64,000 bases of DNA from an uncultured Acidobacteriota bacterium (GCA_963713825.1 CAVQNG010000003.1:1792001-1856000); one strand, 5' to 3'; shown: positions 9,001 through 57,114, numbered from the stretch's first letter. Program-made: numbers and translations. The notes: a model not told the origin generated them from the sequence alone.

Positions 9001-9159
9001 CCACCGGCAGGAACGGTGGGGTTCCATGCGACTGAGACGATCGCAAACTTCGACCTGATCACGGTGCTCACGGATACCAGCACCGCTGGCCCGGTGTTGG
9101 TGTTCGGCGACAGTTTCGAAGGCGGCGACCTTACCGCCTGGTCGAGTCACAGCCCCTAG
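6064..9159 (+). CDS. Large secreted adhesin-like protein: 7-repeat beta-propeller, 2x Calx-beta, 2x BACON-like, jelly-roll domain, C-terminal FGDSFEGGDLTAWS tag
   Basis: RBS GGGGAGG before ATG 6064; signal peptide; seven (D/G)xxGxFVVxW repeats; Calx-beta motifs (VEYATDD..DY, GDDVYEPDETF, TILNDD); BACON-like CGWTAVSSEPWI twice. Confidence 0.85.
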   Translation: MRTTTQSSYQARRLGVALLVATAFSLGSLTAQVIPTGPQVQVKDYPSFFFHRGSDVAVVDLDGNFVVVWASPNMQKILGQRFDSSGAPVGTEFEISTAGYPGNKEKPSVAGDFAGNFVVVWEHERDDNQYPGSPEEIVGRRFDSSGPLHPTEFKVNAASPWRHENPSVTRDGNSNFVVVWQRFDDENPPDRPRILGQRFDAQGTKLGAEIAVSTLGEEEDGKDELPDVGSSLGGDFVVVWQQSGANNEIDPSGDAAVGRRFDSFGAPQDETEFVVNSYTTGSQSRPSVWVGLDGNFVVTWHGEGESDDWGIFAKQFASTGGAIADEFLVNTLTTGFQTESAVVAADALGHFAVTWHSRPSAGGDYSLFARWFRSDGLPFEDQFEVPTHTTGTQESPRIAGDVDGNFVVLWNGDGPADEGFSVRRFEQPVLLTINDFSIQEGDASESAEGIALLTVEASRSHPTLDVTVEYATDDESASSFDDYVASSGMVLFEADTNELTAAIDVEVLGDDVYEPDETFLVNLGRVENAAIVREQGIATILNDDDPPGMTIEDASIEEGNTGTSVLTFRVDLTEVQQEDATVDFSSSDGTATEGSDYQAGNGTLTIPGGSTTGFVGIEINGDFTSEGDESLLVTLSDPSNGTLLRDTATGTILDDDCAVAITIDPSSANYGIAGGTGGITVTDSQGCGWTAVSSEPWIVITSATSGVGNGTIEYSIAANADPLPRNGSITIAGQMFIVTQDGVSCSLGLSPNLADFASGGGDGTFAVSDPGVCGWTAVSNEPWIKVMAGGSGVGSGIVEYSVEKKATPGDRSGTILVSGLLFTVNQEGSFFDHFDDSVLAPTWTYSDPQFWSEGNSFLEADVLGAGEEAQAIAMPAFPGCVECTISTRFGVDVFALGDVGLYGWYVDDDNFVRLTMSEFTNEWTLVQMVGGVEVQSVMTDSEPILANVLYDIDLTFDGTKISASVDGDTILIMVPWQGTPPAGTVGFHATETIANFDLITVLTDTSTAGPVLVFGDSFEGGDLTAWSSHSP

Positions 9160-9195
9160 CCGTCAGGGTCGATCGAGGCCGACGAGGGCCAAGGA

Positions 9196-9298
9196 GCAGG
9201 GGAGGGACTCACCCCCTCCCACGGGTGGCAGCAAGAGCCGCCAATATGTCAGCGGACTCACGGAGGTTCTAATGTAGGGGAGGGGCTTGCCCCCTCCC
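9196..9298 (+). repeat. Two GTAG-type REP-like palindromes (9196-9220 degenerate; 9271-9298)
   Basis: AATGTAGGGGAGGGGCTTGCCCCCTCCC and GCAGGGGAGGGACTCACCCCCTCCC lie between convergent genes; same family as the copies at 50833-50890 and 51481-51562. Confidence 0.8.
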
Positions 9299-9307
9299 GA
9301 GGTTCCG

Positions 9308-10126
9308 TTAGGTACGCCGCCAGATCGAGGGACGGTGCGACAATGCCTCGAAATGAGGCCCACCTGCCGGCAGCTCCTCATGTGCCCCGACGACCAGATA
9401 TCCACCAGGATCGAGGCGTTGGTGCAGGGCAGCTAGATTCTCGCGCTGGGTCTCTTCGACGAAGTAGGTGAAGGCCAGGTTGCGGCAGAGGATCAGGTGG
9501 AAGGGGCCCTCGGGCACTTCCTGGCGAAGATCCTGGTGAGCGAACCGGATTCCCTCACGGTAGGGCTCGCGGAGGAGCAGCTGGTCCTGGTCGAGCTCCT
9601 CAAAGGCCGCGTCACGAATCTCCTTCGGCATTTCCTTCGTGCAGCCAATGGGGTAGACGGCCTGGCGAGCGCGCTCGAGTTGATGCTCGTCCGAGTCCGT
9701 AGCGGTGATATTCAAGCGTGCTGTCTTGAGCTCGGGATCGTCCGAGAGTCTGCGTAGGATGGAGATGGAGTAGGGCTCCTCGCCTGCACCGCAGCCAGCA
9801 CTCCAGATTCGAAGCTCAGACACACCATTCGACTTCACTTGTCGAGAAAGCTCGGGGAGAACCTCCTCCCCGAGCGTCTCGAAGACCCTTCGATCCCGAA
9901 AGAACCTCGAAATCGTGATTCGACAGTAGCCGTCGAGGATCGCCCACTCGTCGGGGTGCTTGCTCAGATACTCTCGGTAGCTCCTTGTGTCCCCGAGCCC
10001 CAGATCTCGTAGCCGCCGCCCGACCCGCTTGCACACCTGCCCCCGCACTTTGCGGAAACCGGGCCACCGAAAGCCCATCCTCGGCAGGGCCCACTGCAGG
10101 AAGAAGATGCACTCGGTATCTCGCAT
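9308..10126 (-). CDS. cheR: CheR-family methyltransferase (orphan)
   Basis: ISRFFRD, RIWSAGCGAGEEPYS, ATD, LILCRNL..YF and GGYLVVGAHE motifs. Confidence 0.88.
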   Translation of the reverse strand: MRDTECIFFLQWALPRMGFRWPGFRKVRGQVCKRVGRRLRDLGLGDTRSYREYLSKHPDEWAILDGYCRITISRFFRDRRVFETLGEEVLPELSRQVKSNGVSELRIWSAGCGAGEEPYSISILRRLSDDPELKTARLNITATDSDEHQLERARQAVYPIGCTKEMPKEIRDAAFEELDQDQLLLREPYREGIRFAHQDLRQEVPEGPFHLILCRNLAFTYFVEETQRENLAALHQRLDPGGYLVVGAHEELPAGGPHFEALSHRPSIWRRT

Positions 10127-10158
10127 CGCCTACCAACTGGCTATCGGCGACGACACCA

Positions 10159-11673
10159 TTACTGGCGGCGCGCATCTCGCCAGCCCAGCAGGGCAGCGAA
10201 CCACATAGCCGACCGTGGGCTGAAGGCTACCCGCCACAACCCGCCATGGATTGCCCCCTCCATGAACAACTCTGCCGGGTGATCGAGAGGAACCGCCGGA
10301 TTGGCGGCAGCTCCCTCGTACCGCAGATCGTGTACCAGCAATGCCGCCATGAGTGCATTGCTGGTGCCGGTTTCGAAGGCCTCGACGCCGAAGTAGTCGG
10401 CCCCGGCGTAGGCTGCGGCGAGAGCCGCATTGCGTACAACGGAAACGGTGTTGGTTCCTGGTGCCACGTTGCTCGACACGCGGAGACCTTGGCTCCGGGC
10501 AAGGGTCGCCCTCCACCGCTGCAACCTTTTGGCCAGGGCGTAGTTCGGGCCTTGCCCAACCACGAGGCTGTCGACAATGGCCGTCTCCTTGCCAGGCGTC
10601 AGAGGCAGCATCCCGGTGATGTTCGGAGTAAACAGGCGATTCCCGCTCAATGTGCGCAGCGATTCCTGCCATAACTTGCCTGCGTCGCGCTCCTCGTATC
10701 GTTGCCGCGCCATCTCGGCTGCCTCTCGAGGAACGGCGAAGACGTCTGTTGGTGTTGCCAGAAGGGCGAGCGTGATCCCCGATTGCTGTACCGCCAGATG
10801 CTCCATGATCGCGTCCATGGCCATGGCCACTCGCACATGCTGACTTCCGTCCAGATAGGCATATCCCCCAACGGTGAGAGGGCTATCGAGCGCCGCCAGC
10901 CAGGAGGCGATCTCTGGTGTCTCTGCGATCAGGTCCGCTCCGGCCTGGGAAGCCAGCACCGCGTCGTCGAGCTCGGGTCGGAAGGGGCTTCGAAGGGGGA
11001 GGATCAGACGGCCGTTTCCCTCCCGCGCATCGGCGATGAGTCGCTCCCAGATCGGCGGCCGATTCAGGTCGACAGCAACGATGTTCGCCCGCCAGCGGTT
11101 GAAGACCTGAAACGGGCCCATCTCGGCCCCTGCCCCCAACAAGACGATCGTCTGGTCAGCAAGGTCGAGCCACTCGGGGTTGGCCTGCACACGCCTCAGG
11201 GCCTCGGCACAAGAGGGCTCGTAGATTCCCCTGGCTTCCCAGTCATCGATCTGCCGTAGCAGGTCGCCTCCCGACAGGTGCTGTCCGGCATACGGGATAG
11301 TCAGCTCTCCTGGCGGTGAAGCATCTTGGCCCTCGATGACAGCCGTGTGCAGCTCTGTTTCTAGACTCCCCTTCATAGCCTCGGGGATGGAAAAGGTGTC
11401 TGGTCCCCTCACGAAGACCATCTCCCTGTACAGCGCACTCATGCCGTCCACGGCAACCCTCTCAGCAGCCTCGGGAGCTTTCAGCCCAGCTTCGACGAGC
11501 TTGCGATAATGGCGAGGATACCGATTGTGCCACGAGTCCTCCCGCGCGACTTCCTCCGCCGCAGCCTCGTCGATGGTGCGCAGTGCATCTGACAAGACGC
11601 GCTTGGCTGTGACAGTCGTGCCTCGCTTGTCCTCACCGGTTTGCGGGAAATTGAGGCCCTGTACTTGGTCCAT
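10159..11673 (-). CDS. Conserved hypothetical protein with Rossmann-like and SDR-like YxxxK motifs
   Basis: 504-aa ORF with TIVLLGAGAEMGP, NIVAVD and NYALAK...GLRVSSNVAPG. Confidence 0.7.
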   Translation of the reverse strand: MDQVQGLNFPQTGEDKRGTTVTAKRVLSDALRTIDEAAAEEVAREDSWHNRYPRHYRKLVEAGLKAPEAAERVAVDGMSALYREMVFVRGPDTFSIPEAMKGSLETELHTAVIEGQDASPPGELTIPYAGQHLSGGDLLRQIDDWEARGIYEPSCAEALRRVQANPEWLDLADQTIVLLGAGAEMGPFQVFNRWRANIVAVDLNRPPIWERLIADAREGNGRLILPLRSPFRPELDDAVLASQAGADLIAETPEIASWLAALDSPLTVGGYAYLDGSQHVRVAMAMDAIMEHLAVQQSGITLALLATPTDVFAVPREAAEMARQRYEERDAGKLWQESLRTLSGNRLFTPNITGMLPLTPGKETAIVDSLVVGQGPNYALAKRLQRWRATLARSQGLRVSSNVAPGTNTVSVVRNAALAAAYAGADYFGVEAFETGTSNALMAALLVHDLRYEGAAANPAVPLDHPAELFMEGAIHGGLWRVAFSPRSAMWFAALLGWRDARRQ

Positions 11674-13323: not shown

Positions 13324-15747
13324 CTACTCGGGCAGGTTCATCTGGCGCAGGAGCTCTTGAAACCGGGGCTCGTTCCTGAGGGATCGGAGACTCGCAAAGA
13401 CACCGATGTAGGGAAGGTTCGGGTCGTGCTCCTCGAAGGCGAGGTCGAGCTGGTCGAGGGCCTCACTGGTCATGCCGGCCTTGGCGAAGGCGATGCCGGC
13501 GTACAAGGGGTAAGTCTTCATCCTCTGGTTCGGATTGTCCACGTTCGCAACGTGAAAATAAGCCAGCTCCCTCTCGGCACCCGTGAAGCCACCTTCGGCG
13601 TAACCGGCTTCCATCGCTGCCGCGGCCTCTGGTAAACCGGTGGCAGTCCAAAGTGCGACATTCGCCGCGTACGATTCTTCAAGCCTCCCCAGGCAGTAGT
13701 AGGACCTGACCAATCCGCTCAGGGCGATGGGTTGGTTTGGAGTCGCCTCGAGGACCCCGCGGTAGAAGTCGATGGCTTCATCGCACCGATCTGTCCCGTT
13801 GAGCACCACTCCGTTGAGCACAAGAACCAGAGCGTTGTACGGGTCGAGCTCCAGGGCTCGCTCCATCTGTACGGTGGCCTCGGCGGGGCGCTGGTTGATC
13901 AGCAGATAGTGAGAGTAGTAGGCCCGCACATCCGCCCAGTTCGGCTTCAGCTCGATGGCGCGCCGAAAGGCGGTCTCGGCGCCCTCCCAATCCCAATCGC
14001 TCCAGGCTCTGACGATTGCGAGTGCGTAATGGGCTTCGGCAACAGACTCGTCAATCTCGAGGGCTCTTTCTGCAGCCGCTCTTGCCTTCGGTCCAGCCTC
14101 TTCCACCGGTGTGAGGCCCATCTGCTGACGTCCGGCCCAGACCAGTGCAAGGCCAGCGTGAGCCGGGGCGTAGTCCGGATCCCTCTCGAGCGCCTGCTCG
14201 AAGTAGTGCTGGGCAGCCTCCAGACCTGCCGGGGTCATCTCGGCGATCTGGGCCTGTCCTTTGAGATAGGCCTCGTAGGCCTCCGGGTCGACTTCGCGGC
14301 TGCTGGCGAGGAGGGCTTCTTCCTGCGGTGTCAGCGTGACCTGGATCTCCTGGGCAATCGCCTGGGCCACTTCGCCCTGCAGGGTCAGGATGCTCGAGAT
14401 CTCGCGCTCGTAACGGTCGGCCCAAAGGTTCGTCTCGGTGGCGGCTTCGATGAGCTGGGCGTTGACCGCAACACGATCGCCCTCGCGTGCTACCGAGCCC
14501 TCGACGAGACCGTCGACGTTCAGCTCGCGAGCGATCTCTGCGAGCGGTTTGTCGCTGCCTTTGTAGCGCATCGCCGAGGAGCGCGAGGTCACCTGGAGTT
14601 CGGCGATTCTGGAGAGACCGGTGATCAGGGCTTCGGTCATGCCGTCAACCAGGTAGTCCTGCTCCGGGTCACCCGAGAGGTTCCTCAGCGGCAGCACTGC
14701 AAGAGAGCTGATCTGCGGACCTTGCTGGGTGACTTCGGTCGGCTCACCAGGACCTCGTCCCGTGAACCACACTACTCCGGCCACGACTGCCAGAATCAGC
14801 GCCGCGGCCAGCAGGACCCGAGCACCGATTCCGAACCGAGTGGTCTTCGACCTGGTCCGAGCGACCTCTGCTCGTCCGGCGGTCAGTTCTCCGTCGAGCT
14901 CTACAAGTTGGGCGTGCAGCTCCCGAGCCGTCGGAAAGCGATCCTCCGGGTTCTTCGCGAGACATCTCTCGATCGTGTTAACCAGGATCTGGGGGATTCC
15001 GGATCTGAGCTCGGCGACGGATTCCGGCTCGTCGCGCAGGATACTCGACATGAGAGTCGCCGAATTCTCGCCGCGAAACGGACGCAACCCGCAGGCCATC
15101 TCGTACAGCACGACTCCGAAGGAGAAGATGTCCGTCCGAGGATCCACCGGCCTTCCCTGGATCTGCTCCGGCGACATGTAGGGCACGGTGCCCACGACCA
15201 GTCCTTGCCGGGTCAGTGGCTCCATCTCGGTCTGGAGCTCGGTTTCCAGCTGCGTGTCCAACAGGGTGTGCGCCTCCTGCCGGGACTTCGCCAGGCCGAA
15301 ATCGAGCACCTTCACCCGACCTTCATTCGTCACCATGATGTTGGCTGGCTTGAGGTCACGGTGAATGATGCCCTTCTCGTGCGCTGCAGCTAGCGCATCC
15401 GTCATGGCAACGACAATCTCGAGGATCTTCTCGACAGGAAGCTCACCTCTGGAGATCACGGCCGAGAGAGGCTCGCCCTCGACCAACTGCATGGTGAGGA
15501 ACCGGATCCCGTCCGACTCCTCCACCGAGTGAATCGACACGATGTTCGGATGGTCGAGGGACGCGAGGACCCTGGCTTCCCGCTTGAAGCGGGCAAGGCT
15601 GTCCGGGTCTTCAGTGAGTGCCGCTGGCAGGACCTTGAGCGCCACGTGACGTCTGAGCGTCGTGTCTTCAGCTCGGTACACCTCACCCATCCGACCTGCT
15701 CCGAGCTTGTCGAGGACACGGTAGTGCCCCAGGGTCTGGCCGATCAT
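13324..15747 (-). CDS. Ser/Thr protein kinase with TM helix, TolB-like domain and TPRs
   Basis: HYRVLDKLGAG.MGEVY, VALK, HRDLKPAN, DFG, YMSPEQ; SLAVLPLRNLSGDPEQDY; TPR repeats. Confidence 0.93.
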   Translation of the reverse strand: MIGQTLGHYRVLDKLGAGRMGEVYRAEDTTLRRHVALKVLPAALTEDPDSLARFKREARVLASLDHPNIVSIHSVEESDGIRFLTMQLVEGEPLSAVISRGELPVEKILEIVVAMTDALAAAHEKGIIHRDLKPANIMVTNEGRVKVLDFGLAKSRQEAHTLLDTQLETELQTEMEPLTRQGLVVGTVPYMSPEQIQGRPVDPRTDIFSFGVVLYEMACGLRPFRGENSATLMSSILRDEPESVAELRSGIPQILVNTIERCLAKNPEDRFPTARELHAQLVELDGELTAGRAEVARTRSKTTRFGIGARVLLAAALILAVVAGVVWFTGRGPGEPTEVTQQGPQISSLAVLPLRNLSGDPEQDYLVDGMTEALITGLSRIAELQVTSRSSAMRYKGSDKPLAEIARELNVDGLVEGSVAREGDRVAVNAQLIEAATETNLWADRYEREISSILTLQGEVAQAIAQEIQVTLTPQEEALLASSREVDPEAYEAYLKGQAQIAEMTPAGLEAAQHYFEQALERDPDYAPAHAGLALVWAGRQQMGLTPVEEAGPKARAAAERALEIDESVAEAHYALAIVRAWSDWDWEGAETAFRRAIELKPNWADVRAYYSHYLLINQRPAEATVQMERALELDPYNALVLVLNGVVLNGTDRCDEAIDFYRGVLEATPNQPIALSGLVRSYYCLGRLEESYAANVALWTATGLPEAAAAMEAGYAEGGFTGAERELAYFHVANVDNPNQRMKTYPLYAGIAFAKAGMTSEALDQLDLAFEEHDPNLPYIGVFASLRSLRNEPRFQELLRQMNLPE

Positions 15748-25101: not shown

Positions 25102-26079
25102 ATGCTCAGACCACGGGTTCGTCTCCGCGCAGTAGCACTCGCTCCAGTGTTGGTCTTTCTCCTCGCCACTTCGGCCACAAGAGGCCAGATGCTCGTGGAT
25201 CACTCCTGCACGGATCTCGACGTAGTGCCCGACACAGCGATCACCAAGGCTGCTGCCGATCTTCATATCGCCTACAACCACACCAGCCACGGTAGCCAGC
25301 TCGTGAGCGGCATGAATGCGCTCGCGAGCTTTCCCGACTACGGCGATACCTACCAATGGTCGGACAACGGCACGGCGGGGCTCGATCTCGATGACTACGG
25401 CATCCCCTGCAACGATTCCGATCTGAGTCAGGGCGACTACATCGATGGGAATGGGGTCACCCCATGGGTGACGTGCACGCGGGCGTTTCTAGACAATGCT
25501 GCCAACGCCCACATCAACGTCGTCATGTGGTCGTGGTGCAGCATTCACGGGCACGATGCCCAGCGGTACGTGGAAAACATGGAGATCCTCGTCACCGAGT
25601 ACCCGAACGTTGACTTCGTCTTCATGACCGGCCACGCGCAGGGCCAGGGTGAGGACATGACCCCCGACAGCGTGCACTACAACAACCAGCTCATTCGTGC
25701 ACACACTCAGGCCCACGGCCGCATCCTGTTCGACTTCGCCGACATCGAGGCCTACGATCCCGACGAGGCCTACTTCTGGGACCTGTTTCTCCAGGACAAC
25801 CTGGATTACAACGGCGGAAACTGGGCGGTGGAGTGGATCAGTGCCAACCCCGGATCCGAGCTCGACCAACTTACGACCGGCGATGGAGTCAACGGCTACG
25901 ACGGCCTCGGCAGTTGTGCCCATTCCGCCTCGCCGTCAGATGCGACCCTGAATTGCATCCTCAAGGGGCGCGCCGCCTGGTGGATGTTCGCAGAGCTGGC
26001 GGGCTGGCGACCGGGCCTCGTCTTCGGAGATGGCTTCGAGACCGGCGGCACTTCTGCGTGGTCCGCCACATCACCGTAG
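25102..26079 (+). CDS. Secreted SGNH-hydrolase-like protein with C-terminal FGDGFETGGTSAWS tag
   Basis: RBS GGGAGG; signal peptide; HTSHGSQ, VVMWSWC, FMTGH and LFDFADIE; C-terminal tag. Confidence 0.75.
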   Translation: MLRPRVRLRAVALAPVLVFLLATSATRGQMLVDHSCTDLDVVPDTAITKAAADLHIAYNHTSHGSQLVSGMNALASFPDYGDTYQWSDNGTAGLDLDDYGIPCNDSDLSQGDYIDGNGVTPWVTCTRAFLDNAANAHINVVMWSWCSIHGHDAQRYVENMEILVTEYPNVDFVFMTGHAQGQGEDMTPDSVHYNNQLIRAHTQAHGRILFDFADIEAYDPDEAYFWDLFLQDNLDYNGGNWAVEWISANPGSELDQLTTGDGVNGYDGLGSCAHSASPSDATLNCILKGRAAWWMFAELAGWRPGLVFGDGFETGGTSAWSATSP

Positions 26080-37114: not shown

Positions 37115-38122
37115 TCAGGGGACCGATCCGGTCCAGGCTGCCGTGTCACCCGATTCGAAGCCGTCCTGGAAGACCATCTCTCCGAAGGCCCCGATGTGAG
37201 TGGTGCTGATGACGATGTTGTCGAACCAGATGCGGTAGGACTGACTGGCCTCGGGAAAATAGTTCCAAACGATGAAGTGATTGAGCAGGAGCTCCTCGGT
37301 GTGCCGCCAAAGCACACCGGTGTGATGTGCGACCAGCTCACCGTCGATCCACAGCGCCATCTCGCCGTCGTAGTTGCCCGCGCCCAGAAACACAGTATTG
37401 GCCCGGATCATGGTTTCCACGGAGTACCAGCGATCCTGCTCCATTGAGACGGCAGTCCCTTGGTTCAAGTTGAAGTGGTTGCCCCAGCAGCACTCGAGCC
37501 CGTTGTTGCAGGGCAGTCCTCTGTTGGCACACCCTTCGCAAATGGCATTCGCATCCGCGTAGGTATTACAGTGACTGCCGGGATCGCAGCTCATGTCGGG
37601 AAAGTAGCTGTAGAAGAAGGGTTCGCCCGGTAGCACATCCGGCACTGTTTCGCGGCTGTCCACCGTCGCACCGTTCAGGCATTTGATGCCATTGGGGCGA
37701 CAGCCGGCTGTACCGTGGCAGGACCACGGGTCGTCGTCGCGGTCACCGTGAACTGCAAAGAAGTGGTGCATCGGACGGTCCCAGGCGCTGTCCCATTTCA
37801 TGTAGAAGCGAACGTAAATACGTTCTTCGCCGAAGAAGCGGTAGCCGAAGCTGGCTCCCGTGCCGTCGGTATCCAGGACCGCTTCCACCGAGCCGCTGCC
37901 TTGAAAGGTGTGCAGGCCTGGCACACCTGCGGTGACGAGAGTGGCGTCGTCATCGTGCTCCATACCCTCCCAGGAGTGGGTCTCGAAGTCGTTGCAGTAG
38001 ACAGCCGGATTCTGCTGGCAATAGGGCTCGATGGCCGTGAGCGGGCCGGCCCCGACCAGGGCGGCAACCAGGGCCGAGAGGGTGACTCGAGACCTTCGAC
38101 GGTGACAACCGAGCTTGCTCAC
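37115..38122 (-). CDS. Secreted jelly-roll (polysaccharide lyase/LamG-like) protein with Cys-rich insert and C-terminal FQDGFESGDTAAWT tag
   Basis: GTG start and signal peptide; IYVRFYMK, RWYSVE, DGEMALWIDG and IWFDNIVIS. Confidence 0.75.
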   Translation of the reverse strand: MSKLGCHRRRSRVTLSALVAALVGAGPLTAIEPYCQQNPAVYCNDFETHSWEGMEHDDDATLVTAGVPGLHTFQGSGSVEAVLDTDGTGASFGYRFFGEERIYVRFYMKWDSAWDRPMHHFFAVHGDRDDDPWSCHGTAGCRPNGIKCLNGATVDSRETVPDVLPGEPFFYSYFPDMSCDPGSHCNTYADANAICEGCANRGLPCNNGLECCWGNHFNLNQGTAVSMEQDRWYSVETMIRANTVFLGAGNYDGEMALWIDGELVAHHTGVLWRHTEELLLNHFIVWNYFPEASQSYRIWFDNIVISTTHIGAFGEMVFQDGFESGDTAAWTGSVP

Positions 38123-38262
38123 GCTTGGATCGAGGGTACCAAGACAGTGTCGGCAGTTCAGTGGAGGTTCAACACTGTCTCGTGGGAGGTGCGGCCCAGT
38201 GTAGAATCCCAGTAAATAGGCAGGTCAAGATCGTCCAGCAGGAGCCGCGAGGAAGGGGCTCG

Positions 38263-40875
38263 ATGATCGACGATTCCATAGCGCACTACCAAATCCTCCG
38301 CAAGCTCGGTAAGGGCGGCATGGGGGAGGTGTTTCTCGCGCGAGACGAGAAGCTGGGGCGCAAAGTGGCCCTCAAAGTCCTGCCACCGGAGGCGGCGGGG
38401 AATCAAGAGAGACTCGAGCGTTTCCGGCGCGAGGCCAAGGCCGTCGCGGCGTTGAACCACCCCAACATCGTCACGATCTATTCGGTCGAGGAGGTCGACG
38501 GCCTGCACTTCCTGACGATGGAGTACGTGGAAGGCAAGACGCTGTCGGAGGTGGTTCCGAAGAGCGGTCTCAGCCTGGAGCGCTTCTTCGAGATCGCCGG
38601 TTCCCTAGCGGATGCCCTGAGCAAGGCTCACGAAAAGGGGATCATCCATCGCGACCTGAAGCCCCGCAACGTGATGGTGGATCGAGATGGGCGGATTCGA
38701 GTCCTCGATTTCGGTCTGGCCAAGCTGCTTCCGACCCAGCGCAGGGAGGATGTGGATCTCGACTCGACACAGCCGACCGAGGTGCTGACGGGCGAGGGGA
38801 AGGTAGTCGGAACGACGCCCTTCATGTCACCGGAGCAACTCCGGGGTCGTCCGCTGGACGCGCGATCCGACATCTTCTCCCTGGGCATTCTGCTGTATTG
38901 GATGTCGACGGGCCGCCATCCTTTCAGTCGTGACAGCTCGGCCGATGTCATCTCCGCGATCCTCACCTCCAACCCGCCTCCGGTGACTGAAATCAAGGAG
39001 GACATGCCACGCCATCTCGGGCGTGTCATCCGGCACTGTCTAGAGAAGGACCCTTCGCAGCGGTTCCAGACAGCCCTCGATGTGCGCAACGAGCTCGAGG
39101 CGCTGCGAGAGGAAGTGTCGAGTGGTACAGCAACTGTCAGCTCGGAGTCCCTGTTCCCAGCCGAGCCCGAGAAGCGATCGAGGCGCTGGCGTGGCCTGGC
39201 CCTGGCGGCTGTATCCGTGGTCGCAATCCTGGTGGGGCTTCTGGTTGTGCGCAGCTGTGCGAGCCCGCCCCAGGATCTCAGGACTCTGGCAGTGCTGCCG
39301 TTCGCCAACCTGACAGGCGATCCCGAGAACGACCACCTGGGAGAGGTCTTCAGCAGCGGCCTGACGTACGAGCTCTCGGGCCGGTATGGCCTCCAGACGG
39401 TGGGTCGATCCGAAGTCGCGAGCCTTATTGGGAATGGTGTCGGAGCGTCCGAGTTTGGCAAGCGACTGGGTGTTGGCTCTGTCGTCGACGGCGAGATTCT
39501 TCGCGAAGGCGACCGGCGAAGAGTCGTGGTCAGCTTGACGGACACGGCTAACGGTTTCGTGCTGTGGTCGGAGCCCTATTCCTCCTCAGAGCCGGGCCTT
39601 GTCGCGCTGCAAGAGGAGGTGGCCAGAGATCTCGGTGCGCTGCTGTCGATTCCAATGACCCCAAGGCAGCGACGGCGACTGAGGAAGAACCCGGCTGAAC
39701 TGACCCGCGCCTACTCTCACTATGTGCGGGGCCAGAGGTTTCTCGATCAAGCGGATGATCCGAGTGGGCCGGAATCCGCCGCGGACAATTTCCGACAGGC
39801 AATCCGGTTGCACCCGGAATTCGCCATCGCTCACGCCAGCCTGAGCGAGGCCCTGTGGCAGATGTACCATCGGGACCTGGACCCGCAGCTTCTCGAGCAG
39901 GCTGAAATCGAAGCCAATCTAGCCCTCGAGCAGGCTCCGGACCTGCCCGCTGCGCGAATCGCCCTTTCCCGGGTGCTCCGGAGCACGGGTCAGGTGTCAG
40001 CCTCGATTGAAGTCCTGGAGCAGGCCATCGCCGATCATCCGAACCCGGATGAGGCCTACAGAGAGCTTGCCGCGGGCTACGAGCGAATCGGCGAGTTGGA
40101 GCCGGCGGAGAGCTATTACAGGACCGCCGCCGCGCTCAACGAGAGCGATTGGCTGAACTGGAATCGCCTCGGAGCGCTGCTCGCTGAGCTCGGGCGTTAC
40201 GATGAGGCGCGGGTTGCTTTTCAGCGTGCAGTAGACGTGGCTCCAGAACACATTTACCGTCCGCTCGAGAACCTCGGAACCCTCTACGTCTATGAAGCCG
40301 ACTACGAGACGGCGATCGAGATTTACGAGAAGATCCCAGAGCCCATACCGTACGCGCTGCTAGCCACCAATATCGCCACGGCTTACTTCTTCAAGGGTGA
40401 CATGGACCAGGCGGTCGGGAACTTCGCTCTGGCCGTGAAGCTGGATCCCAAAGATGCGGCGCTGCGGCGAAACCACGGTGACGTGCTGTTGCGCATGGGC
40501 GACCGCGAGGCGGCGGCGGCCGAGTACCGTGAGGCGGTGGCCCTGATGGACGAGGAGTTATCCGTCAATCCGGGGGACGGTGAACTTTTGCTCCACCGTG
40601 CCATGTATTCAGCCAAAGCGGGCGACTGCGAAAGCGCCGTGTCGGAGGCGACCGAGTTGAAGGCGACTCTCCCGAAGACGGCATTCGGAGCGCACGAGCT
40701 CGCCTACATATACGCCCTCTGTGGGACGCGTGAGATGGCGCTGGTGGCCGTCCGCGAGGCGATCGATCTGGGGATCAACCCCGAGCTGATGGCTCAAGAG
40801 GACGAGTTCGCCTCACTCCAAGACGATCCGGAGTTCCAGGCCTTGACCGGTGGCGGGCCAGAGAGCCCGAGCTAG
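38263..40875 (+). CDS. Ser/Thr protein kinase with TM helix, TolB-like domain and TPRs
   Basis: HYQILRKLGKGGMGEV, HRDLKPRN, DFG, SPEQ; LAVLPFANLTGD; TPRs. Start re-assigned to ATG 38263. Confidence 0.93.
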   Translation: MIDDSIAHYQILRKLGKGGMGEVFLARDEKLGRKVALKVLPPEAAGNQERLERFRREAKAVAALNHPNIVTIYSVEEVDGLHFLTMEYVEGKTLSEVVPKSGLSLERFFEIAGSLADALSKAHEKGIIHRDLKPRNVMVDRDGRIRVLDFGLAKLLPTQRREDVDLDSTQPTEVLTGEGKVVGTTPFMSPEQLRGRPLDARSDIFSLGILLYWMSTGRHPFSRDSSADVISAILTSNPPPVTEIKEDMPRHLGRVIRHCLEKDPSQRFQTALDVRNELEALREEVSSGTATVSSESLFPAEPEKRSRRWRGLALAAVSVVAILVGLLVVRSCASPPQDLRTLAVLPFANLTGDPENDHLGEVFSSGLTYELSGRYGLQTVGRSEVASLIGNGVGASEFGKRLGVGSVVDGEILREGDRRRVVVSLTDTANGFVLWSEPYSSSEPGLVALQEEVARDLGALLSIPMTPRQRRRLRKNPAELTRAYSHYVRGQRFLDQADDPSGPESAADNFRQAIRLHPEFAIAHASLSEALWQMYHRDLDPQLLEQAEIEANLALEQAPDLPAARIALSRVLRSTGQVSASIEVLEQAIADHPNPDEAYRELAAGYERIGELEPAESYYRTAAALNESDWLNWNRLGALLAELGRYDEARVAFQRAVDVAPEHIYRPLENLGTLYVYEADYETAIEIYEKIPEPIPYALLATNIATAYFFKGDMDQAVGNFALAVKLDPKDAALRRNHGDVLLRMGDREAAAAEYREAVALMDEELSVNPGDGELLLHRAMYSAKAGDCESAVSEATELKATLPKTAFGAHELAYIYALCGTREMALVAVREAIDLGINPELMAQEDEFASLQDDPEFQALTGGGPESPS

Positions 40876-46903: not shown

Positions 46904-48169
46904 TCAGCGCCAGACCAGCGGTCGCTGGACCACCGACGACCAGGCTGTCGTGTCGCCCGATTCGAAGCCGTCGGAGAAGAGCGGCTCCGCCGTCTCTTCG
47001 ATGCAGTATAGGCTTGAGAAGTTGAAGTCGCAGCTGCTGGTGAAGAGCAGGGTCCAGGCACTGTCCGCCGCGTTGGCGGCGCCCGCGCGAGCTGTTTCCG
47101 TTCCGCTCGCCGAGGTCCAGTCGGAACAAGTTCCATTGTCCCGGAGTCCGTCGCTGGCGGTCGCCGTCCACACCGCAATGTATGAAGAATACCTGCCCAG
47201 CTCTGACACATTGATGGAGGCCTCGAGTGATCCGTCCAACATGTCGGCCAGCGAGTCGGCCACCTTGACGCCATCCGGGCGGACCCTGGGTCCATCGACC
47301 AGAAAGCGATCCTTGGCGTCGGTCGTCGAGTCGGAGATCCAGGCTTTGAAACTCGAAGGATTCGCGAGTGAACCTGCCGCAGCCCGGGCCTGGCAGATGG
47401 CATCGGCGGCAGCCACTCCTGTCTGGCCTCCGGCATCGGGCCAGGAGCCCAAATCTCCCGTGCCCCTCACCGAGGTCACGAAGGCGACGGCACCCGTCTC
47501 GGCGGGTGGGGTCAGCGCAGGCCCCGATCCCGGCTCGAAGCAAAAGAGGTGAGCCGCGCCGGCACACGCCGGTGATCCGGTGTTGGTCCAGCTATACGAG
47601 CCTCGAGCCGTGCTTCCCACTTGTACAGCGACCGCAGGCGTGGCGGTCCAGTCCCCGCAGGTGCTGTGATTCGTGTCCAGAGTTCCTTCTGCGTCGGTTG
47701 CCGTAAAGACCGAGCCTGGAACGGACTCGCCATCTTCGTCGGCTGCCAGGGGGTAATAGACGACGGCTTCGGGAGGAACAAGCCGGTCGATTGTTTCGCT
47801 GAACGGCAGGCCGTCGGTCCGAACCCACGGGCCAGCGGCGACGGGAAGTTGTGCCTGGCCGCAATTGGCTGACTTCTTGCCGGTGAACCCATGCAACCTG
47901 CAGTAGGCGTCATCTGTACTCGTCGAAAGCCAGGCGATGAAGGTGTCGGCGTTCTGGAGCCCCGCGTCCGTGGCGAGAGTGCGGCAGATCTCGTCGCCGG
48001 CGCTAGCCCCGACGGCACTGCCTGCTTCAGGCCAGCTGCCGAGATCGGCCGTGCCAGTCACCGAGGTGACAAAGGCGACTTTCGGCTGCTGCGCCTCGAG
48101 CGCCGACACGAAGGCGCAAGAAAAGAGAAGAATTGTCCAGAGCCGAATCCGGCTGGTCGTCGGTTGCAT
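46904..48169 (-). CDS. Secreted protein with two DUF1554/endostatin-like domains and C-terminal FSDGFESGDTTAWS tag (paralog B)
   Basis: RBS GGAGG at ATG 48169; signal peptide; two repeats of AFVTS..G.DLG.W....G..AxDxIC...A......F.AW.S. Confidence 0.82.
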   Translation of the reverse strand: MQPTTSRIRLWTILLFSCAFVSALEAQQPKVAFVTSVTGTADLGSWPEAGSAVGASAGDEICRTLATDAGLQNADTFIAWLSTSTDDAYCRLHGFTGKKSANCGQAQLPVAAGPWVRTDGLPFSETIDRLVPPEAVVYYPLAADEDGESVPGSVFTATDAEGTLDTNHSTCGDWTATPAVAVQVGSTARGSYSWTNTGSPACAGAAHLFCFEPGSGPALTPPAETGAVAFVTSVRGTGDLGSWPDAGGQTGVAAADAICQARAAAGSLANPSSFKAWISDSTTDAKDRFLVDGPRVRPDGVKVADSLADMLDGSLEASINVSELGRYSSYIAVWTATASDGLRDNGTCSDWTSASGTETARAGAANAADSAWTLLFTSSCDFNFSSLYCIEETAEPLFSDGFESGDTTAWSSVVQRPLVWR

Positions 48170-48257
48170 ACTGCCTCCTCGCCCGCCAACCGGTATCCGG
48201 AGGCAGTGTTGGTAGATCAAACTGTTCGCGGTTGCGCTGATGGGCACTCTAGCATGG

Positions 48258-48279: not shown

Positions 48280-49542
48280 TCAGCGAAAAATCAGCGGCCG
48301 CTGGACCACCGACGACCAGGCTGTCGTGTCCCCCGACTCGAAGCCGTCGGAGAAGATCGGCTCGGGTGGATCCTCGATGCAATAGAGACGCGAGTTGGCG
48401 AAGCTGCAGCTCGGGCTGTAGTACACGGTCCACGTGCTGTCCGCCCCAAAGGTGGTGCCCGCGCGAGCGGTATCTCCTCCGCTGGCCGAGGTCCAGTCTG
48501 AGCAAGTTCCGTCGAGGAGCCATCCTTCCGAGTTGGTCGCCGTCCAGGCCGCGTCGTTCGTGAGATAGGTCCCGAGCTCGGTTACGTTGATAGACGCATT
48601 GAGGGAGCCGTCCAGTAGGTCGGCGAACGAGTCCGCCACCTTGACTCCGTCTGGCCGCACTCTCGGTCCATCCGTGAGGAGGCGGTCCCTGGCATGGGTT
48701 GCCGAGTCGGACAGCCAGGCTCTGAATCTCGAGGGATTGGGCAGCGACGCCACCGCGGCCCGTACCTGACAGATGGCATCCGCCGCAGCCAATCCGGTCT
48801 GGCTTCCGGCGTCGGTCCAGGAGCCCAGGTCAGCTGATCCCGATACCGACGTCGCGAATGCAAGAGCACCAGTCTCCGCTGGTGGCGTGAGAGCGGGTCC
48901 CGCTCCAGGTTCGAGGCAAATCAGATGATTCGCCACATCGCATCGGTTGCTACCCATATTGGTCCAGCCCGCGGAACCGCGCGCCGTTCCGCCAAGGACC
49001 ACGCCATCCGGAATAGTCGAGGTCCAATCTGTGCAGGTGACGGGGTTCGGTGACACAGTGCCATTGGACATGGTTGCCGTCATCATGTATCCCTCGACGG
49101 GGTTTCCATCTTCATCGGCTGCCAGAGGGTAGTAGACGACTGATTCAGGGAGCAGTAGCCGGTCGATACTCTCCCCGAACGGCAAGCCGTCGGTCCGAAC
49201 CCACGGGCCAGCATCGACGGGCAGCTCGGCCTGACCACAGTTTGCGGACTTCTTGCCGCTGAATCCATGCAGCCTGCAGTAGGCATCATCGGTGCTCGTC
49301 GAGAGCCATGCGATGAAGGTGCCCGCATTGGCGAGTCCAGCGTCGGTGGCGAGAGTCCGGCAGATCGCGTCGCCGGCGGCCGCTCCGACGGCACTCCCTG
49401 CCTCTGGCCAGCTGCCCAGGTCGGCAGTGCCGTTCACCGAGGTCACAAAGGCGACTTTCTGTTGGGCTTCGAGCGCAGGGGAAGACAGCCCGACGAGAAC
49501 GAAGATCATCCACGCCAGGTAGCGGTAGCTGGTAGGTCCCAT
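48280..49542 (-). CDS. Secreted protein with two DUF1554/endostatin-like domains and C-terminal tag (paralog A)
   Basis: RBS GGGAGG at ATG 49542; colinear with, and highly similar to, 46904-48169. Confidence 0.82.
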   Translation of the reverse strand: MGPTSYRYLAWMIFVLVGLSSPALEAQQKVAFVTSVNGTADLGSWPEAGSAVGAAAGDAICRTLATDAGLANAGTFIAWLSTSTDDAYCRLHGFSGKKSANCGQAELPVDAGPWVRTDGLPFGESIDRLLLPESVVYYPLAADEDGNPVEGYMMTATMSNGTVSPNPVTCTDWTSTIPDGVVLGGTARGSAGWTNMGSNRCDVANHLICLEPGAGPALTPPAETGALAFATSVSGSADLGSWTDAGSQTGLAAADAICQVRAAVASLPNPSRFRAWLSDSATHARDRLLTDGPRVRPDGVKVADSFADLLDGSLNASINVTELGTYLTNDAAWTATNSEGWLLDGTCSDWTSASGGDTARAGTTFGADSTWTVYYSPSCSFANSRLYCIEDPPEPIFSDGFESGDTTAWSSVVQRPLIFR

Positions 49543-49700
49543 GGCACCTCCCACCTCCGAAATGGAGCTGTAGCGACTGTCAAGTCGTTGAGAAAAGACT
49601 GTCTCGGCACAAAAAGCCTAGCACAGGGAGAGTCTCCCAACTAACAGCAGTCCTGCGCCGGAAATGGTACGTTCGGCCCTATTCCAGAAGGGGTGGAGCC

Positions 49701-50822
49701 ATGAAGAGACGTGTCATCTCGAGCCTTCTACTTGTGAGCTTTCTGGCGGTGCCGATGTTCGGTTCGCGGAGCACCTACGACGGGCCGACGTTGCGAGACA
49801 ACTACGACGGCCCCATCCTTGTCGACAACTCCCAGCTGCGCTACCGCGGTGCCGACATGCTGAGCTTCGACACGGCCGTGTACCTGGAGCACGAGGCTCC
49901 CAACTTGATGCCGCTCCGCCCGGCGATCGACACCTGGGCTGCCATGCACGCCATTCATCCACGGGTGCTGATTCAGGTGCTGCGTGCGTACTGGCCGGTG
50001 GCGCCGACCTCGGGGAACATGGTCGAGAAGCAGACTGTCCACCAGATCGCCACCGGAATCGCTATGGTCTACCTGCGGCATCCTGAGGACCCCCTGGCAG
50101 CCTCGAAAGCGGTGATGGCCATCGCGGATGCCTACCATCTGAGGGTCGACCTGCCCGCCGAGCTGGCCAGGGGCCGGCACCTTCCGACACCCACGGCGCC
50201 ACTGGTCTTCGGTTGGTTCCAGCCGCCTTGGACGATTGGCGACACCTGGGCCGGAGGCGGTGCTCACGGTGACACTGGCAGCGGGGTCCGCAACGCGCTC
50301 GACTACTGGGGACAATGGCGCGATTGGGGTGCGGACTTGAGCCAATGGTGGGTGGCGGCGACCCAGGCCGGTACCGCACGAGTATGGTCCGAGTGCAGCG
50401 TATCGGTGTATCACGCCGATGACTGGGTGTCGACTTACTACCACCTGGAGAATATTCAGATTGCGGACCGCCAAGTCGTGGAACGAAACACGGTGATCTC
50501 GAACTACGCCAACGACAAGCCGACGGCACTTTGCCAGGGGGGCTCGTCCACGGGACCGCATCTCCACTCGGCTCTCTACCACAATGGCAACCGCGTCGAG
50601 ATCGATGAGGCCAACGTGGACTTCACCGCCTTCTCGCATCACGCTGGCGAGGGCCAGTACGACTTCAACTGTGCCACCTCCTGGTACACCCACGACACCA
50701 ACGGCAAGGTCTGCCCCTCGGCGGACCAACTCTGGAACAATGCTCCGCCCCCGAGCCCCATGCCCTTCATCGACGGCTTCGAGTCCGGCGACACCGCGGC
50801 CTGGACGAGCACTACCCAGTAG
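49701..50822 (+). CDS. lasA: M23A metalloendopeptidase, LasA/beta-lytic protease-like, with C-terminal FIDGFESGDTAAWT tag
   Basis: Signal and pro-region (IHPRVLI); GAHGDTGSG..ALD, CSVSVYH, YYHL and ALCQGGSSTGPHLH. Confidence 0.88.
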   Translation: MKRRVISSLLLVSFLAVPMFGSRSTYDGPTLRDNYDGPILVDNSQLRYRGADMLSFDTAVYLEHEAPNLMPLRPAIDTWAAMHAIHPRVLIQVLRAYWPVAPTSGNMVEKQTVHQIATGIAMVYLRHPEDPLAASKAVMAIADAYHLRVDLPAELARGRHLPTPTAPLVFGWFQPPWTIGDTWAGGGAHGDTGSGVRNALDYWGQWRDWGADLSQWWVAATQAGTARVWSECSVSVYHADDWVSTYYHLENIQIADRQVVERNTVISNYANDKPTALCQGGSSTGPHLHSALYHNGNRVEIDEANVDFTAFSHHAGEGQYDFNCATSWYTHDTNGKVCPSADQLWNNAPPPSPMPFIDGFESGDTAAWTSTTQ

Positions 50823-53711: not shown

Positions 53712-53713
53712 GG

Positions 53714-54511: not shown

Positions 54512-54550
54512 CCTGGGCCTCCTCGGGCAGAGCGCAGGCACCCGCCATGA

Positions 54551-54565
54551 AGGTGCCTGGCACCT
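54551..54565. repeat. AGGTGCCTGGCACCT palindrome
   Basis: Perfect 7-1-7 palindrome in a divergent intergenic region. Confidence 0.55.
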
Positions 54566-54672
54566 ATCCTATCGGTCCGGGGTCAGCCAACGTGACAGAA
54601 TCTCACTTTGCAAGTGTCGGAGTTTCTGCCCTCCAAAGGGTCTGGAATCGATAGCGCGAAGGGAGCAACGGA

Positions 54673-55272: not shown

Positions 55273-55287
55273 AGAGCGCGGTGCTCT

Positions 55288-55923
55288 ATGAAGCTCATCG
55301 ACCTTACCCACGTCGTCAAACCGGGAATGACTGTGTTCCCCGGCACAGAAGCGCCGGTTTTCGAAGTGGGCTCTTCGATCGACAAGGATGGCTTCGAAGA
55401 GAAGAAGATCACCATGTTCTCCCATACCGGGACGCACATGGACGCTCCGGCACACATCATCGCCGGCGCCCGCAGATTGGACGAGTTTCCCATTGGCAAG
55501 TTCTCGGGCCAGGCTTGCGTCGTCGATGTGGATAGCAACGATGCCGTCAAGATTGATGTGGAAGTGCTAAAGAGCAGGGGCGAGGCGATTCTCGAGTCCG
55601 ACTTCGTGATCCTGCGCAGCGGCTGGAGCCAGCTGTGGGACTCCGACGAGTACTTCCGTAATTTCCCTGTCCTGAGCCCTGAAGCAGCTCAGTGGCTCGT
55701 CGAGGCGAACATCAAGGGCGTCGGCCTCGACATGATCTCGGTGGACGAGTGCGATTCCACCGATTTCGCTGTCCACAACATCCTGCTCGGCGCGGATCTG
55801 GTGATCATCGAGAACCTGACGAACCTGGAGCTGCTGCCCGATTCGGTCTTCTCCTTCTACTGCTTCCCCCTACGCATCGACCAGGCAGACGGCTCCCCAG
55901 TGCGTGCTGTGGCTGCTGTCTGA
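55288..55923 (+). CDS. Cyclase family metal-dependent hydrolase (kynurenine formamidase-like)
   Basis: SHTGTHMDAPAH, IIENL and DGSPVRAVA. Confidence 0.9.
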   Translation: MKLIDLTHVVKPGMTVFPGTEAPVFEVGSSIDKDGFEEKKITMFSHTGTHMDAPAHIIAGARRLDEFPIGKFSGQACVVDVDSNDAVKIDVEVLKSRGEAILESDFVILRSGWSQLWDSDEYFRNFPVLSPEAAQWLVEANIKGVGLDMISVDECDSTDFAVHNILLGADLVIIENLTNLELLPDSVFSFYCFPLRIDQADGSPVRAVAAV

Positions 55924-55935
55924 AGCTGCTGCTTT

Positions 55936-57114
55936 TCACTGCACCACGGTAGGCCAGGCCGACAGGTCACCCGACTCGAAATCGTCCTTGAAGATCGCGG
56001 TGTCGAGGTGCCCCAGCGCGACAGCCCTGCTGTTGTCAGTGTCTGCACTGACGTCGCCGCAGGTGAAGCCTCCGTTGCCATCGCCAAGGCAGACACGATC
56101 CTCTTCACTCACATTGGAGAAGACGGCATCGAGATGCGAGTCGTCGTCGATCAGGCCCAGCGCAACGTCAACCGAAGTGTAGCTGACGGCCTCGACGTTG
56201 CTGCAGGAGAAGCCGCCTGTGCCGTCGCCCAGGCAGACGCGATTCGGGTCACCAGCGTTCGCGAAAACAACATCGACGTTGTCGTCGCCGTCAATCAATC
56301 CTGACGCCACACTGGTGGTAGTACCACGTTCGCTCAGATAGCTGCAGGTGAGGCCGCCCAGCCCGTCACCCACACAGAGCTGATTCGATCCGTTCGAGTT
56401 GCTGACAACGGCGTCCAAATGCCGGTCGGAATCGATCCGATCGAGCACGATGTCCGAAGAAAGGGAGCCAACGTCGAGCTCGCTGCAGGAGAAGCCGCCG
56501 GCACCATCGCCAAGGCAGATTTGAGCGTCGGACCCGCTGAAGACCGCGTCGAGGTGGTTGTCGGCGTCCAGCCAGTCCAGCGCGACCGCGGACGTAGTAG
56601 TGGGATCGCCCGCGAAGTCACTACAGGAAAAGCCACCGCTTCCGTCTCCCAAACAGACCCGATCCCACCAGCCGGACGTGGCGAGCACCACATCGAGGTT
56701 CAGGTCACCGTCGACGAATCCGAGGGCCACTCCGAACGTGTTGATGCTGGACTGGCTGAGGTCGCCACAGGTGAAGTCTCCGAAGCCATCGCCGAGGCAG
56801 AGCCGGTTGCCCTTGTAGGCGTTGGTGGCAAAGATCGCATCGAGATGAACGTCGCCGTCGACCAGTCCGAGTGCTACGTTTTGGGTGATCCTGATGTCGG
56901 TCTCGAGGTCGCTGCAGCTGAATCCACCTGTGCCGTCGCCGAGACAGACCTGGCTTTCGGCGTCGTAGACGGCAAACACGGCATCGAGATTCCCGGCGCC
57001 TTTGGCCGGTATCGTCAGTGAGCCGGAAGCTCCCAGCAACACGAGAATGAAGGCGAGTGGAAGCGAGTTGTGCTTCAGCTGTTCAGGGCTTGGATGTTCC
57101 TTGGGTCTCTTCAT
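55936..57114 (-). CDS. Secreted FG-GAP/VCBS-like 7-bladed beta-propeller with C-terminal FKDDFESGDLSAW tag
   Basis: RBS GGGAGGGG; hydrophobic signal; seven repeats of LDxVF...C[LV]GDGxGxFxC...VAL..xDxD. Confidence 0.85.
   Translation of the reverse strand: MKRPKEHPSPEQLKHNSLPLAFILVLLGASGSLTIPAKGAGNLDAVFAVYDAESQVCLGDGTGGFSCSDLETDIRITQNVALGLVDGDVHLDAIFATNAYKGNRLCLGDGFGDFTCGDLSQSSINTFGVALGFVDGDLNLDVVLATSGWWDRVCLGDGSGGFSCSDFAGDPTTTSAVALDWLDADNHLDAVFSGSDAQICLGDGAGGFSCSELDVGSLSSDIVLDRIDSDRHLDAVVSNSNGSNQLCVGDGLGGLTCSYLSERGTTTSVASGLIDGDDNVDVVFANAGDPNRVCLGDGTGGFSCSNVEAVSYTSVDVALGLIDDDSHLDAVFSNVSEEDRVCLGDGNGGFTCGDVSADTDNSRAVALGHLDTAIFKDDFESGDLSAWPTVVQ

Follow-up and report, generated by a model that had tools for sequence, protein, structure and literature searches.

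The window considered here is a stretch of 64,000 nucleotides from an uncultured Acidobacteriota bacterium (GCA_963713825.1 CAVQNG010000003.1:1792001-1856000), situated on contig C3 of a genome of 5.42 Mb in 38 contigs, which is designated G000 below. An earlier note on this DNA had claimed that seven of the genes in the window share one C-terminal motif, and all seven open reading frames (ORFs) were found to end in F-x-D-G-F-E-S-G-D-x-x-A-W followed by five residues (hereafter the tag), at the coordinates listed further below. The tag is homologous to the N-terminus of a larger protein domain, the remainder of which is encoded elsewhere in the genome as a small, separate protein without the tag (hereafter the body), and tag and body probably constitute a natural split-lectin tag-and-receptor docking system. 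In the mechanism that we propose, a domain would have been split such that each tagged protein (cargo) keeps the donor hairpin, and the rest would be encoded once per genome as a small Sec-exported body. After export, the tag would insert between the last strand of this receptor and a conserved A-Y-V strand, completing the fold, and some 80 cargos would thereby be docked non-covalently to the receptor. The receptor itself would be held in the envelope or matrix, by fused SLH domains in some relatives and elsewhere presumably through the surface-polysaccharide systems encoded beside it.

The relationship between the tag and a larger domain was revealed by database searches with a profile built from 20 tails, in which 6954 of 1.84 billion cluster representatives matched at E ≤ 1e-3. 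The best 150 of these matches were sorted by the number and position of their motif copies: 67 had a single terminal copy (many of these being contig-end fragments), 66 had several copies of which none was terminal, 13 had several copies of which one was terminal, and four showed another pattern. Two or more copies were thus present in 79 of the best 150 matches. In most of the multi-copy proteins among these 150, the motifs were spaced approximately 190-290 residues apart, with approximately 170-190 residues following the last, and in 14 of the 150 two copies lay within 40 residues of one another. When segments beginning at the motif were compared, 141 of 147 belonged to one family, the consensus of which places the tag first and approximately 190 residues after it. 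In addition, the Pfam families PF14099 (Polysacc_lyase) and PF02018 (CBM_4_9) aligned from their profile positions 1-3 at the motif, with scores below the family cut-offs. From this family of motif-started segments and from the Pfam alignments at the motif, the tag is recognised as the opening hairpin of a concanavalin A (ConA)-like jelly roll, that is, as the first two beta-strands (approximately 22 residues) of a lectin- or carbohydrate-binding-module-like domain of approximately 190 residues.

The tag is thus neither a free-standing signal nor an independent invention, but opens a known fold that is found complete in other proteins. The whole domain was located at the C-terminus of GSDH-like and FG-GAP enzymes in genome G131, from the same family, of which the G000 homologues end in the tag only; amino acid identities between the G131 and G000 proteins were 39-46% for the GSDH-like enzymes and 26-33% for the FG-GAP protein. 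Further unsplit forms comprised a stand-alone secreted whole domain in G285, from another class, and the C-termini of enzymes in both G131 and G130. The assignment to the ConA-like fold was corroborated by a Foldseek search with the predicted structure of the body, which returned GH16, PL7, CBM40 and galectin structures (E 3e-5 to 3e-4, template modelling scores 0.31-0.46). No curated family matched the domain or the body above its cut-off, and no significant sequence relative was present in Pfam, NCBIfam or the PDB.

A hidden Markov model (HMM) of the whole domain, searched against the six-frame ORFs of G000, yielded one strong body match (C25:782647-783348, domain E 2.8e-16) that spans HMM positions 40-209 and lacks the tag region at approximately positions 10-30. 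The body so identified comprises 218 residues (C25:782692-783348; L033:6693-7346) and has an N-terminus that, by eye, resembles a signal peptide. The start of the mature protein corresponds, in the alignment, to the part of whole domains that comes right after the tag. Besides this body, a single further body-like match was obtained in G000, namely one of the seven cargos of the window (cargo 3 below), a more distant jelly roll with a first strand of its own. When the body was modelled alone, it was predicted to be a beta-sandwich (predicted local distance difference test, pLDDT, 77; predicted template modelling score 0.76) in which the first 16 residues fell below a pLDDT of 50 and no substitute for the first strand was evident. 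The machinery reading the tag had been supposed in the earlier note to be encoded elsewhere in the genome, and this held in so far as a likely partner resides on contig C25; it did not hold as regards the kind of partner, which looks like one small receptor rather than an enzyme or a secretion apparatus.

With the G000 body as a single query, stand-alone tagless homologues were recovered from genomes G165 and G176, and whole domains from G131. This query missed G119, G005 and G276, in each of which exactly one match was found with a profile built without these three genomes. The bodies of G119 and G005 consist of a signal peptide and the tagless body, and that of G276 of a signal peptide, the tagless body and SLH domains. 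All 22 bodies inspected from tag-positive genomes of the class, including 16 from genomes other than those named above, lacked the tag. Of these 16, 12 were stand-alone, those of G415 and G400 were fused to SLH domains according to Pfam, and that of G399 bore a different N-terminal extension; SLH-like repeats in the body protein of G348 were recognized by eye only. The SLH domains (PF00395) of the G276, G400 and G415 proteins scored 45-46 bits against a cut-off of 20.8 (E ~1e-11). A search for longer homologues with a fused receptor, restricted by a requirement for shared words, returned four proteins and is uninformative. In a collection of 5.8 billion proteins, the body family was represented by 72 clusters of 127-303 residues, all annotated as hypothetical and without a Pfam family, and none of the 72 was tagged. 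Two subfamilies of bodies could be distinguished by their conserved ends, ..Y-V-S-T-R and ..S-F-R-T-L-A-P.

The phylogenetic profiles of tag and body were compared in samples of 301 genomes from the phylum and 201 genomes from the class, with the reservation that kin genomes do not provide independent counts. In the phylum sample, 20 genomes had a tag hit and 12 a body hit; 10 had both, 10 the tag only, two the body only and 279 neither. In the class sample, 35 genomes had a tag hit and 32 a body hit; 30 had both, five the tag only, two the body only and 164 neither, such that the tag co-occurs with a tagless body in 30 of the 35 tag-positive genomes of the class. In the two body-only genomes of the class (G427 and G460), the matches are whole domains that have a first strand of their own. 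At least 40 tags were present in each of 20 genomes of the class sample, and most tag-rich genomes gave a single body match. Within family f4, two genera possess both tag and body and 27 genomes of a third genus, g5, possess neither; in family f1, one genus is devoid of tag and body alike.

The possibility of a direct contact between tag and body was assessed by predicting the complex of the mature G000 body (with an alignment of 10 sequences) and the last 30 residues of the M23 protein encoded in the window (with 20 tails). Interface scores (ipSAE) of 0.68, 0.74 and 0.75 were obtained, with a median of 0.74, and the best of three controls scored 0.01; in a calibration, 116 of 157 solved complexes and two of 215 mismatched pairs attained such a score. 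At least 88% of the contacts were common to the runs, and the pLDDT of the partner was at least 71. In the predicted complex, tag residues 13-17 (F-I-D-G-F) pair with residues 189-193 of the body, in its last strand, and tag residues 25-29 (W-T-S-T-T) with residues 37-41, in the conserved A-Y-V strand; the predicted position of the tag would be that expected of strands 1 and 2 in such a jelly roll. As regards donor-strand complementation, the body lacks the first hairpin of the domain, and it is by prediction that the tag is put in its place. The columns of the body family that form the predicted interface were far more conserved than the others (mean entropy 1.25 versus 2.45 bits, 33 versus 152 columns, Mann-Whitney p 1e-10), and the positions predicted to contact the tag account for 19 of the 30 most conserved positions of the body. 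The complex prediction is best regarded as a statement of compatibility rather than of binding. We infer that tag and body bind one another, and that such binding is the purpose of the tag.

The earlier note had named a tail forming an integral strand of each cargo fold as an observation that would tell against its proposal. In the LasA-like M23 cargo this was not the case: in a model built with 60 homologues, the enzyme had a pLDDT above 90, and the last 23 residues had values of 41-51 and no secondary structure, hence the tail is not an integral strand of that cargo. The tag closes 53 of the 84 homologues of this protein, and in one more it is situated eight residues before the end. The more distant LasA-like homologues (P0276, P0280 and P0283-P0299, two of them source-named Marinicella) terminate in a half tag, [IL]-[FY]-x-[ND]-G-F-[ED], and others are without a tag. 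A one-strand version of the system may exist in Pseudomonadota.

The neighbourhoods of the body genes include functions relating to surface polysaccharides. In G276, the body gene is preceded by that of an S8 protease with a degenerate tag and followed by one gene for a 1340-residue polysaccharide pyruvyl-transferase plus glycosyltransferase. The body gene of G176 is located inside a polysaccharide cluster that encodes three GT4 glycosyltransferases, Wzy_C, a flippase-sulfotransferase and epimerases. That of G165 lies near sulfatase-like genes and a sulfotransferase gene, and an extracytoplasmic function (ECF) sigma factor, an anti-sigma factor of the zf-HC2 type and a tagged protein are encoded in the vicinity. 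That of G119 (L047:1414-2115) lies near genes for glycosyltransferases, sulfatase-like proteins and an ABC transporter. Immediately before the G119 body gene, L047:702-1352 (plus strand) encodes a zf-HC2 anti-sigma factor (PF13490) that has one transmembrane helix, ends in a tag-like peptide and might sense free receptor. In G000, the body gene is followed by sulfatase-like genes, GT2 genes and an ABC transporter, and is preceded on the same strand by three tandem paralogues of 520-611 residues (C25:776862-782431; L033:863-6432) with signal peptides and coiled-coil ends. Two of these three carry a Peptidase_S74 (endosialidase chaperone) domain according to Pfam, and the three look like trimeric fibres. 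The SLH fusions and the polysaccharide loci suggest that the receptor is retained on the wall or on a surface polymer, and the tagged anti-sigma factor suggests that at least some contact occurs in the periplasm. No secretion component was linked to the tags or bodies in the six annotated body neighbourhoods, and no periplasmic chaperone or usher was found around the six body loci or in the window.

Several observations weigh against a docking system of this kind. The G000 genome gave no SLH match, and its body has no recognisable anchor. The bodies of G000 and G119, from one genus and from loci that are apparently syntenic (as judged from near-identical ends of the flanking products and not from an alignment), share only 21% identity and fall into different subfamilies, and the tags of both genomes fit the same profile equally. 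Approximately 80 cargos for a single receptor gene would require high expression of the receptor. The complex prediction employed custom alignments, to which the calibration applies only roughly, and because tag and body are two halves of one fold, a passing score may only restate that fold; the modelling of the tail within its cargo covers one cargo, the M23 protease. The co-distribution is likewise imperfect, as 10 of the 20 tag-hit genomes of the phylum sample, with one to five tag hits each, gave no body, nor did five of the 35 tag-positive genomes of the class sample even at E ≤ 1. These five genomes are fragmented (180-740 contigs, 91-95% complete), and three of them belong to genera whose other members have the body. 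The body profile (A3) includes sequences from seven of the positive genomes, and since tag and body are pieces of one domain, their co-distribution could in part reflect common descent.

The tail profile was also utilized in a census of the G000 genome, in which 83 six-frame ORFs were retrieved at E ≤ 1e-3 and none from the reversed ORFs. Of the 83 ORFs, 65 end precisely with the tag, 13 have one to seven further residues after it, three have the tag near the N-terminus and two have it elsewhere. In the 65 exactly terminal tags, the tryptophan invariably lies six residues before the end, P (34), Q (20) or E (11) comes last and V is penultimate in 43; the F, E, G and W of the tag were invariant or nearly so. 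Near-identical or identical tagged ORFs were present on different contigs (C14/C38, C1/C24, C5/C21/C22 and C13/C15), reflecting assembly redundancy or recent duplication, and the count of 83 is slightly inflated. The restriction of the tag to C-termini, as envisaged in the earlier note, was contradicted by four proteins with the tag at the mature N-terminus (one of them just below the threshold), in which it directly follows the signal peptide and precedes a proline-rich linker, and by one Rhs protein with an internal tag. The latter is an Rhs-repeat protein of approximately 1600 residues (C35:14156-18982; L005) that has the tag at residues 1318-1335, preceded by a poly-proline stretch and followed by a C-terminal region. 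A tag that is usable at the N-terminus as well as at the C-terminus agrees with a docking peptide and not with a C-terminal processing signal.

The cargos are diverse, as had been claimed from the window: 77 cargo bodies of at least 80 residues fell into 46 BLAST clusters. A Pfam scan of 27 of the 83 (the seven window proteins and loci L006-L020 and L001-L005) identified Calx-beta/BACON, FG-GAP, M23, M36 fungalysin, trypsin-like peptidase, GDSL lipase and Laminin_G_3 domains, as well as a lyase-like jelly roll. The tail itself was covered by no model when cargos were searched against Pfam and NCBIfam and tails alone against Pfam. The largest tagged cluster, comprising window positions 6049-7400 and ten other ORFs, is characterised by an N-terminal repeat of approximately 55-60 residues without a Pfam match (..D-G-N-F-V-V-V-W.. 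then ..G-Q-R-F-D..G.P.G.E-F.V-N..). Close homologues of the body and of the M23 cargo carry source names of Acidobacteriota, class Thermoanaerobaculia. The seven cargos encoded in the window are as follows.

Cargo 1, 6049..9159, plus strand: 1036 residues with an N-terminal repeat region, Calx-beta, BACON and, at the C-terminal end, a jelly roll that has a first strand of its own; tag at 9100-9156.

Cargo 2, 25102..26079, plus strand: approximately 325 residues from the ATG at 25102 (longest ORF from 25045), no Pfam family; tag at 26020-26076.

Cargo 3, 37115..38122, minus strand: 335 residues, a jelly roll resembling polysaccharide lyases (weak PF21294/PF14099) that has a first strand of its own; tag at 37118-37174.

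Cargo 4, 46904..48171, minus strand: approximately 421 residues from the ATG at 48169, with a weak match to DUF1554; six extra residues follow the tag at 46925-46981.

Cargo 5, 48280..49544, minus strand: tandem paralogue of cargo 4, starting with the ATG at 49542; six extra residues follow the tag at 48301-48357.

Cargo 6, 49701..50822, plus strand: 373 residues, a LasA-like M23 metallopeptidase with a Pro-rich linker; tag at 50763-50819, the tail being unstructured and detached in the AlphaFold model.

Cargo 7, 55936..57116, minus strand: approximately 392 residues from the ATG at 57114, an FG-GAP repeat protein; tag at 55939-55995.

The likely starts of the seven genes (6049, 25102, 38122, which is a GTG, 48169, 49542, 49701 and 57114) were picked by eye as an in-frame ATG ahead of a signal-peptide-like stretch. 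The Sec-type signal peptides that had been attributed to these proteins were likewise judged by eye, and all seven N-termini look Sec-like. An automated signal-peptide heuristic proved too permissive to serve as evidence, being positive for 51 of 64 C-terminally tagged proteins and for 1761 of 3455 background gene models (51%). Between tags, 73 of 237 codon pairs for the same residue employed different codons, in agreement with the conservation at the protein level that had been asserted. At that level, the description of a modular tag on exported proteins was upheld.

In the earlier note, the tag had been taken for an export or anchoring signal, of which the export function was not supported, nothing in these results pointing to it. 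We regard it as rather unlikely that the tag is an export or sorting signal, read in the periplasm and directing the cargo across or onto the outer membrane, with the body as a periplasmic adaptor or chaperone. All cargos do look Sec-exported, many being typical exoenzymes (M36, trypsin-like, GDSL lipase and M23), and G000 has two secretins, which would suit such a route; the inner-membrane anti-sigma factor of G119 with its tag-like end places at least one contact between tag and body in the periplasm, and SLH domains in diderm bacteria usually bind wall polymers, on the periplasmic side. However, the six annotated body neighbourhoods are without a linked secretion component, N-terminal and internal tags would be unusual for a secretion signal, and in relatives the positions of the tag are occupied by whole domains, a folded lectin domain being no known export signal.

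It is also unlikely, in our estimation, that the tag acts as an autonomous sticky peptide, acidic and aromatic and possibly binding Ca2+ or glycans or self-associating, with the body an unrelated lectin sharing only ancestry with it. Motifs rich in D, E and G can bind Ca2+, no detectable body accompanies the one to five tags of some genomes outside the class, and the half tag of the distant LasA-like homologues (two of them source-named Marinicella) stops right after G-F-E, all of which would be in keeping with a peptide that needs no partner. This explanation nevertheless leaves unaccounted for the 72 database clusters of a jelly roll minus just this hairpin, with no tag amongst them, the presence of mostly one body gene per tag-rich genome, and the coincidence of the most conserved residues of the body with the predicted contacts of the tag.

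The fixed distance of the tag from the C-terminus and the restriction of the last residue to P, Q or E might recall a C-terminal degradation or quality-control signal for a periplasmic tail-specific or PDZ protease, but functional-looking copies at N-termini and at internal positions, the one to seven extra residues in 13 of the 83 ORFs and the want of any link between the tag and a protease render this highly improbable. Relatives do have the whole domain at the same position, and still it is barely conceivable that the tails are functionless vestiges of decayed C-terminal domains, given that 65 tags end at the identical position with F, E, G and W (nearly) invariant and synonymous codons varying, and that decay would not yield tags on 46 unrelated cargo clusters or at least 40 copies in each of 20 genomes.

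Sorting systems in which one terminal tag is likewise borne by many unrelated exported proteins include LPXTG/sortase, PEP-CTERM/exosortase, GlyGly-CTERM/rhombosortase and the C-terminal domain (CTD) of the type IX secretion system (T9SS). The T9SS CTD is a folded beta-sandwich of 70-100 residues at the C-terminus of the cargo. Unlike these signals, the tag has no transmembrane helix or basic tail, is much shorter than the T9SS CTD and also occurs at N-termini, and its partner looks like a binding protein rather than a transpeptidase or translocon. The tails are acidic, approximately 20 residues long, end five residues past the tryptophan and have no hydrophobic stretch, and thus bear no sortase, exosortase or rhombosortase signature. 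The PEP-CTERM model TIGR02595 gave no match in G000, a result that is uninformative alone given that control genomes were silent too, and the single G000 match to the T9SS CTD model (TIGR04183) was marginal (23.5 bits against a cut-off of 23) and lay inside a 1339-residue ORF. The exclusion of these four systems in the earlier note was therefore sound.

A closer likeness may be drawn to the cellulosome, in which secreted enzymes plug dockerins into cohesins, with SLH-anchored scaffoldins and RsgI-type anti-sigma sensors. Common to both are many secreted proteins with a short terminal module for a common receptor, a receptor that can be anchored by SLH domains and an anti-sigma factor bearing a module of the system, and the tagged anti-sigma factor of G119 resembles the RsgI anti-sigma factors of cellulosome producers. 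Phylum and cargo differ from those of cellulosome systems, and whereas the dockerin is a duplicated Ca2+-binding fold of approximately 70 residues, built of two repeats of some 22 residues, that docks onto the surface of a complete cohesin, itself a jelly roll of nine strands, here a hairpin of 22 residues would complete an incomplete jelly roll. Pfam searches detected neither dockerin nor cohesin on cargos, tails or body, and the single hairpin and incomplete receptor fold conform to neither.

Chaperone-usher and type V pili provide a precedent for a beta-sandwich that is without one edge element and is completed in trans by another polypeptide. A Gram-positive WxL pilus of the donor-strand type has also recently been reported in a preprint (bioRxiv 10.64898/2026.10.17.759780). 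In contrast to pili, which involve polymerising pilins with a dedicated chaperone and usher, one lectin-like protein would here receive a hairpin from approximately 80 unrelated enzymes and adhesins, and what the fold is missing is a hairpin at the N-terminus of a jelly roll, unlike in donor-strand pilins. None of the chaperone-usher hallmarks (chaperone, usher and polymerising pilins) was in evidence around the six body loci or in the window, the cargos being enzymes and adhesins. SpyTag/SpyCatcher and split-GFP are engineered pairs of a strand tag and its catcher, of which SpyCatcher forms an isopeptide bond. They share with the present pair a short strand tag split off a beta-rich domain, with the remainder as catcher; unlike them, the pair described here is natural, proteome-wide and presumably non-covalent. 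No description of the tag or of split-lectin docking was found in the literature searched, the coverage of which did not extend to subscription journals, and the Pfam and NCBIfam libraries know neither tag nor body.

A more extensive version of the docking scheme is possible and is put forward tentatively. As a proteome-wide tag-and-catcher, docking might complete the lectin, which would then bind the cell's own sulfated or pyruvylated surface polysaccharide or be held by SLH domains, with proteases, lipases, lyases and adhesins forming a coat reminiscent of a cellulosome; the tagged anti-sigma factor might sense free receptor and tune expression. Should split-lectin docking be correct, it would represent a new principle of bacterial protein sorting or display, in which the parts of one domain are distributed over the proteome, the address being a 22-residue donor hairpin and the common receptor one incomplete lectin. 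It would account for approximately one protein in 60 of these abundant sediment Acidobacteriota and for the 6954 cluster representatives, in which the motif would be either an orphan tag or the start of a whole domain, and would show how the exoenzymes of these bacteria are retained. It would furthermore furnish a natural, small and genetically encodable tag-receptor pair for biotechnology.

The body locus was present in DNA runs from sediment metagenomes. In two estuary RNA-library runs, both from one study, short contigs were located inside the body gene and the next gene, which is no proof of transcription. Neither a level of transcription nor a habitat follows from these runs. Atlas look-alikes of the body were hypothetical-protein clusters in Acidobacteriota and Pseudomonadota, being commonest in the latter, and included one PF21340-bearing cluster.

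No machinery adjoins the tagged genes in the window, their neighbours being confined to genes for kinases, an ECF sigma factor, GH123, MacB, Mla and metabolism. The genes for the ECF sigma factor (4092-4694, minus strand) and for a Ser/Thr kinase-TPR protein (1730-4108, minus strand) are coupled, and this pair (1730-4694) is divergent from a gene for a 401-residue protein of unknown function and from that of cargo 1. Further kinase-TPR genes of the window are located at 13324-15747 and 38125-40875.

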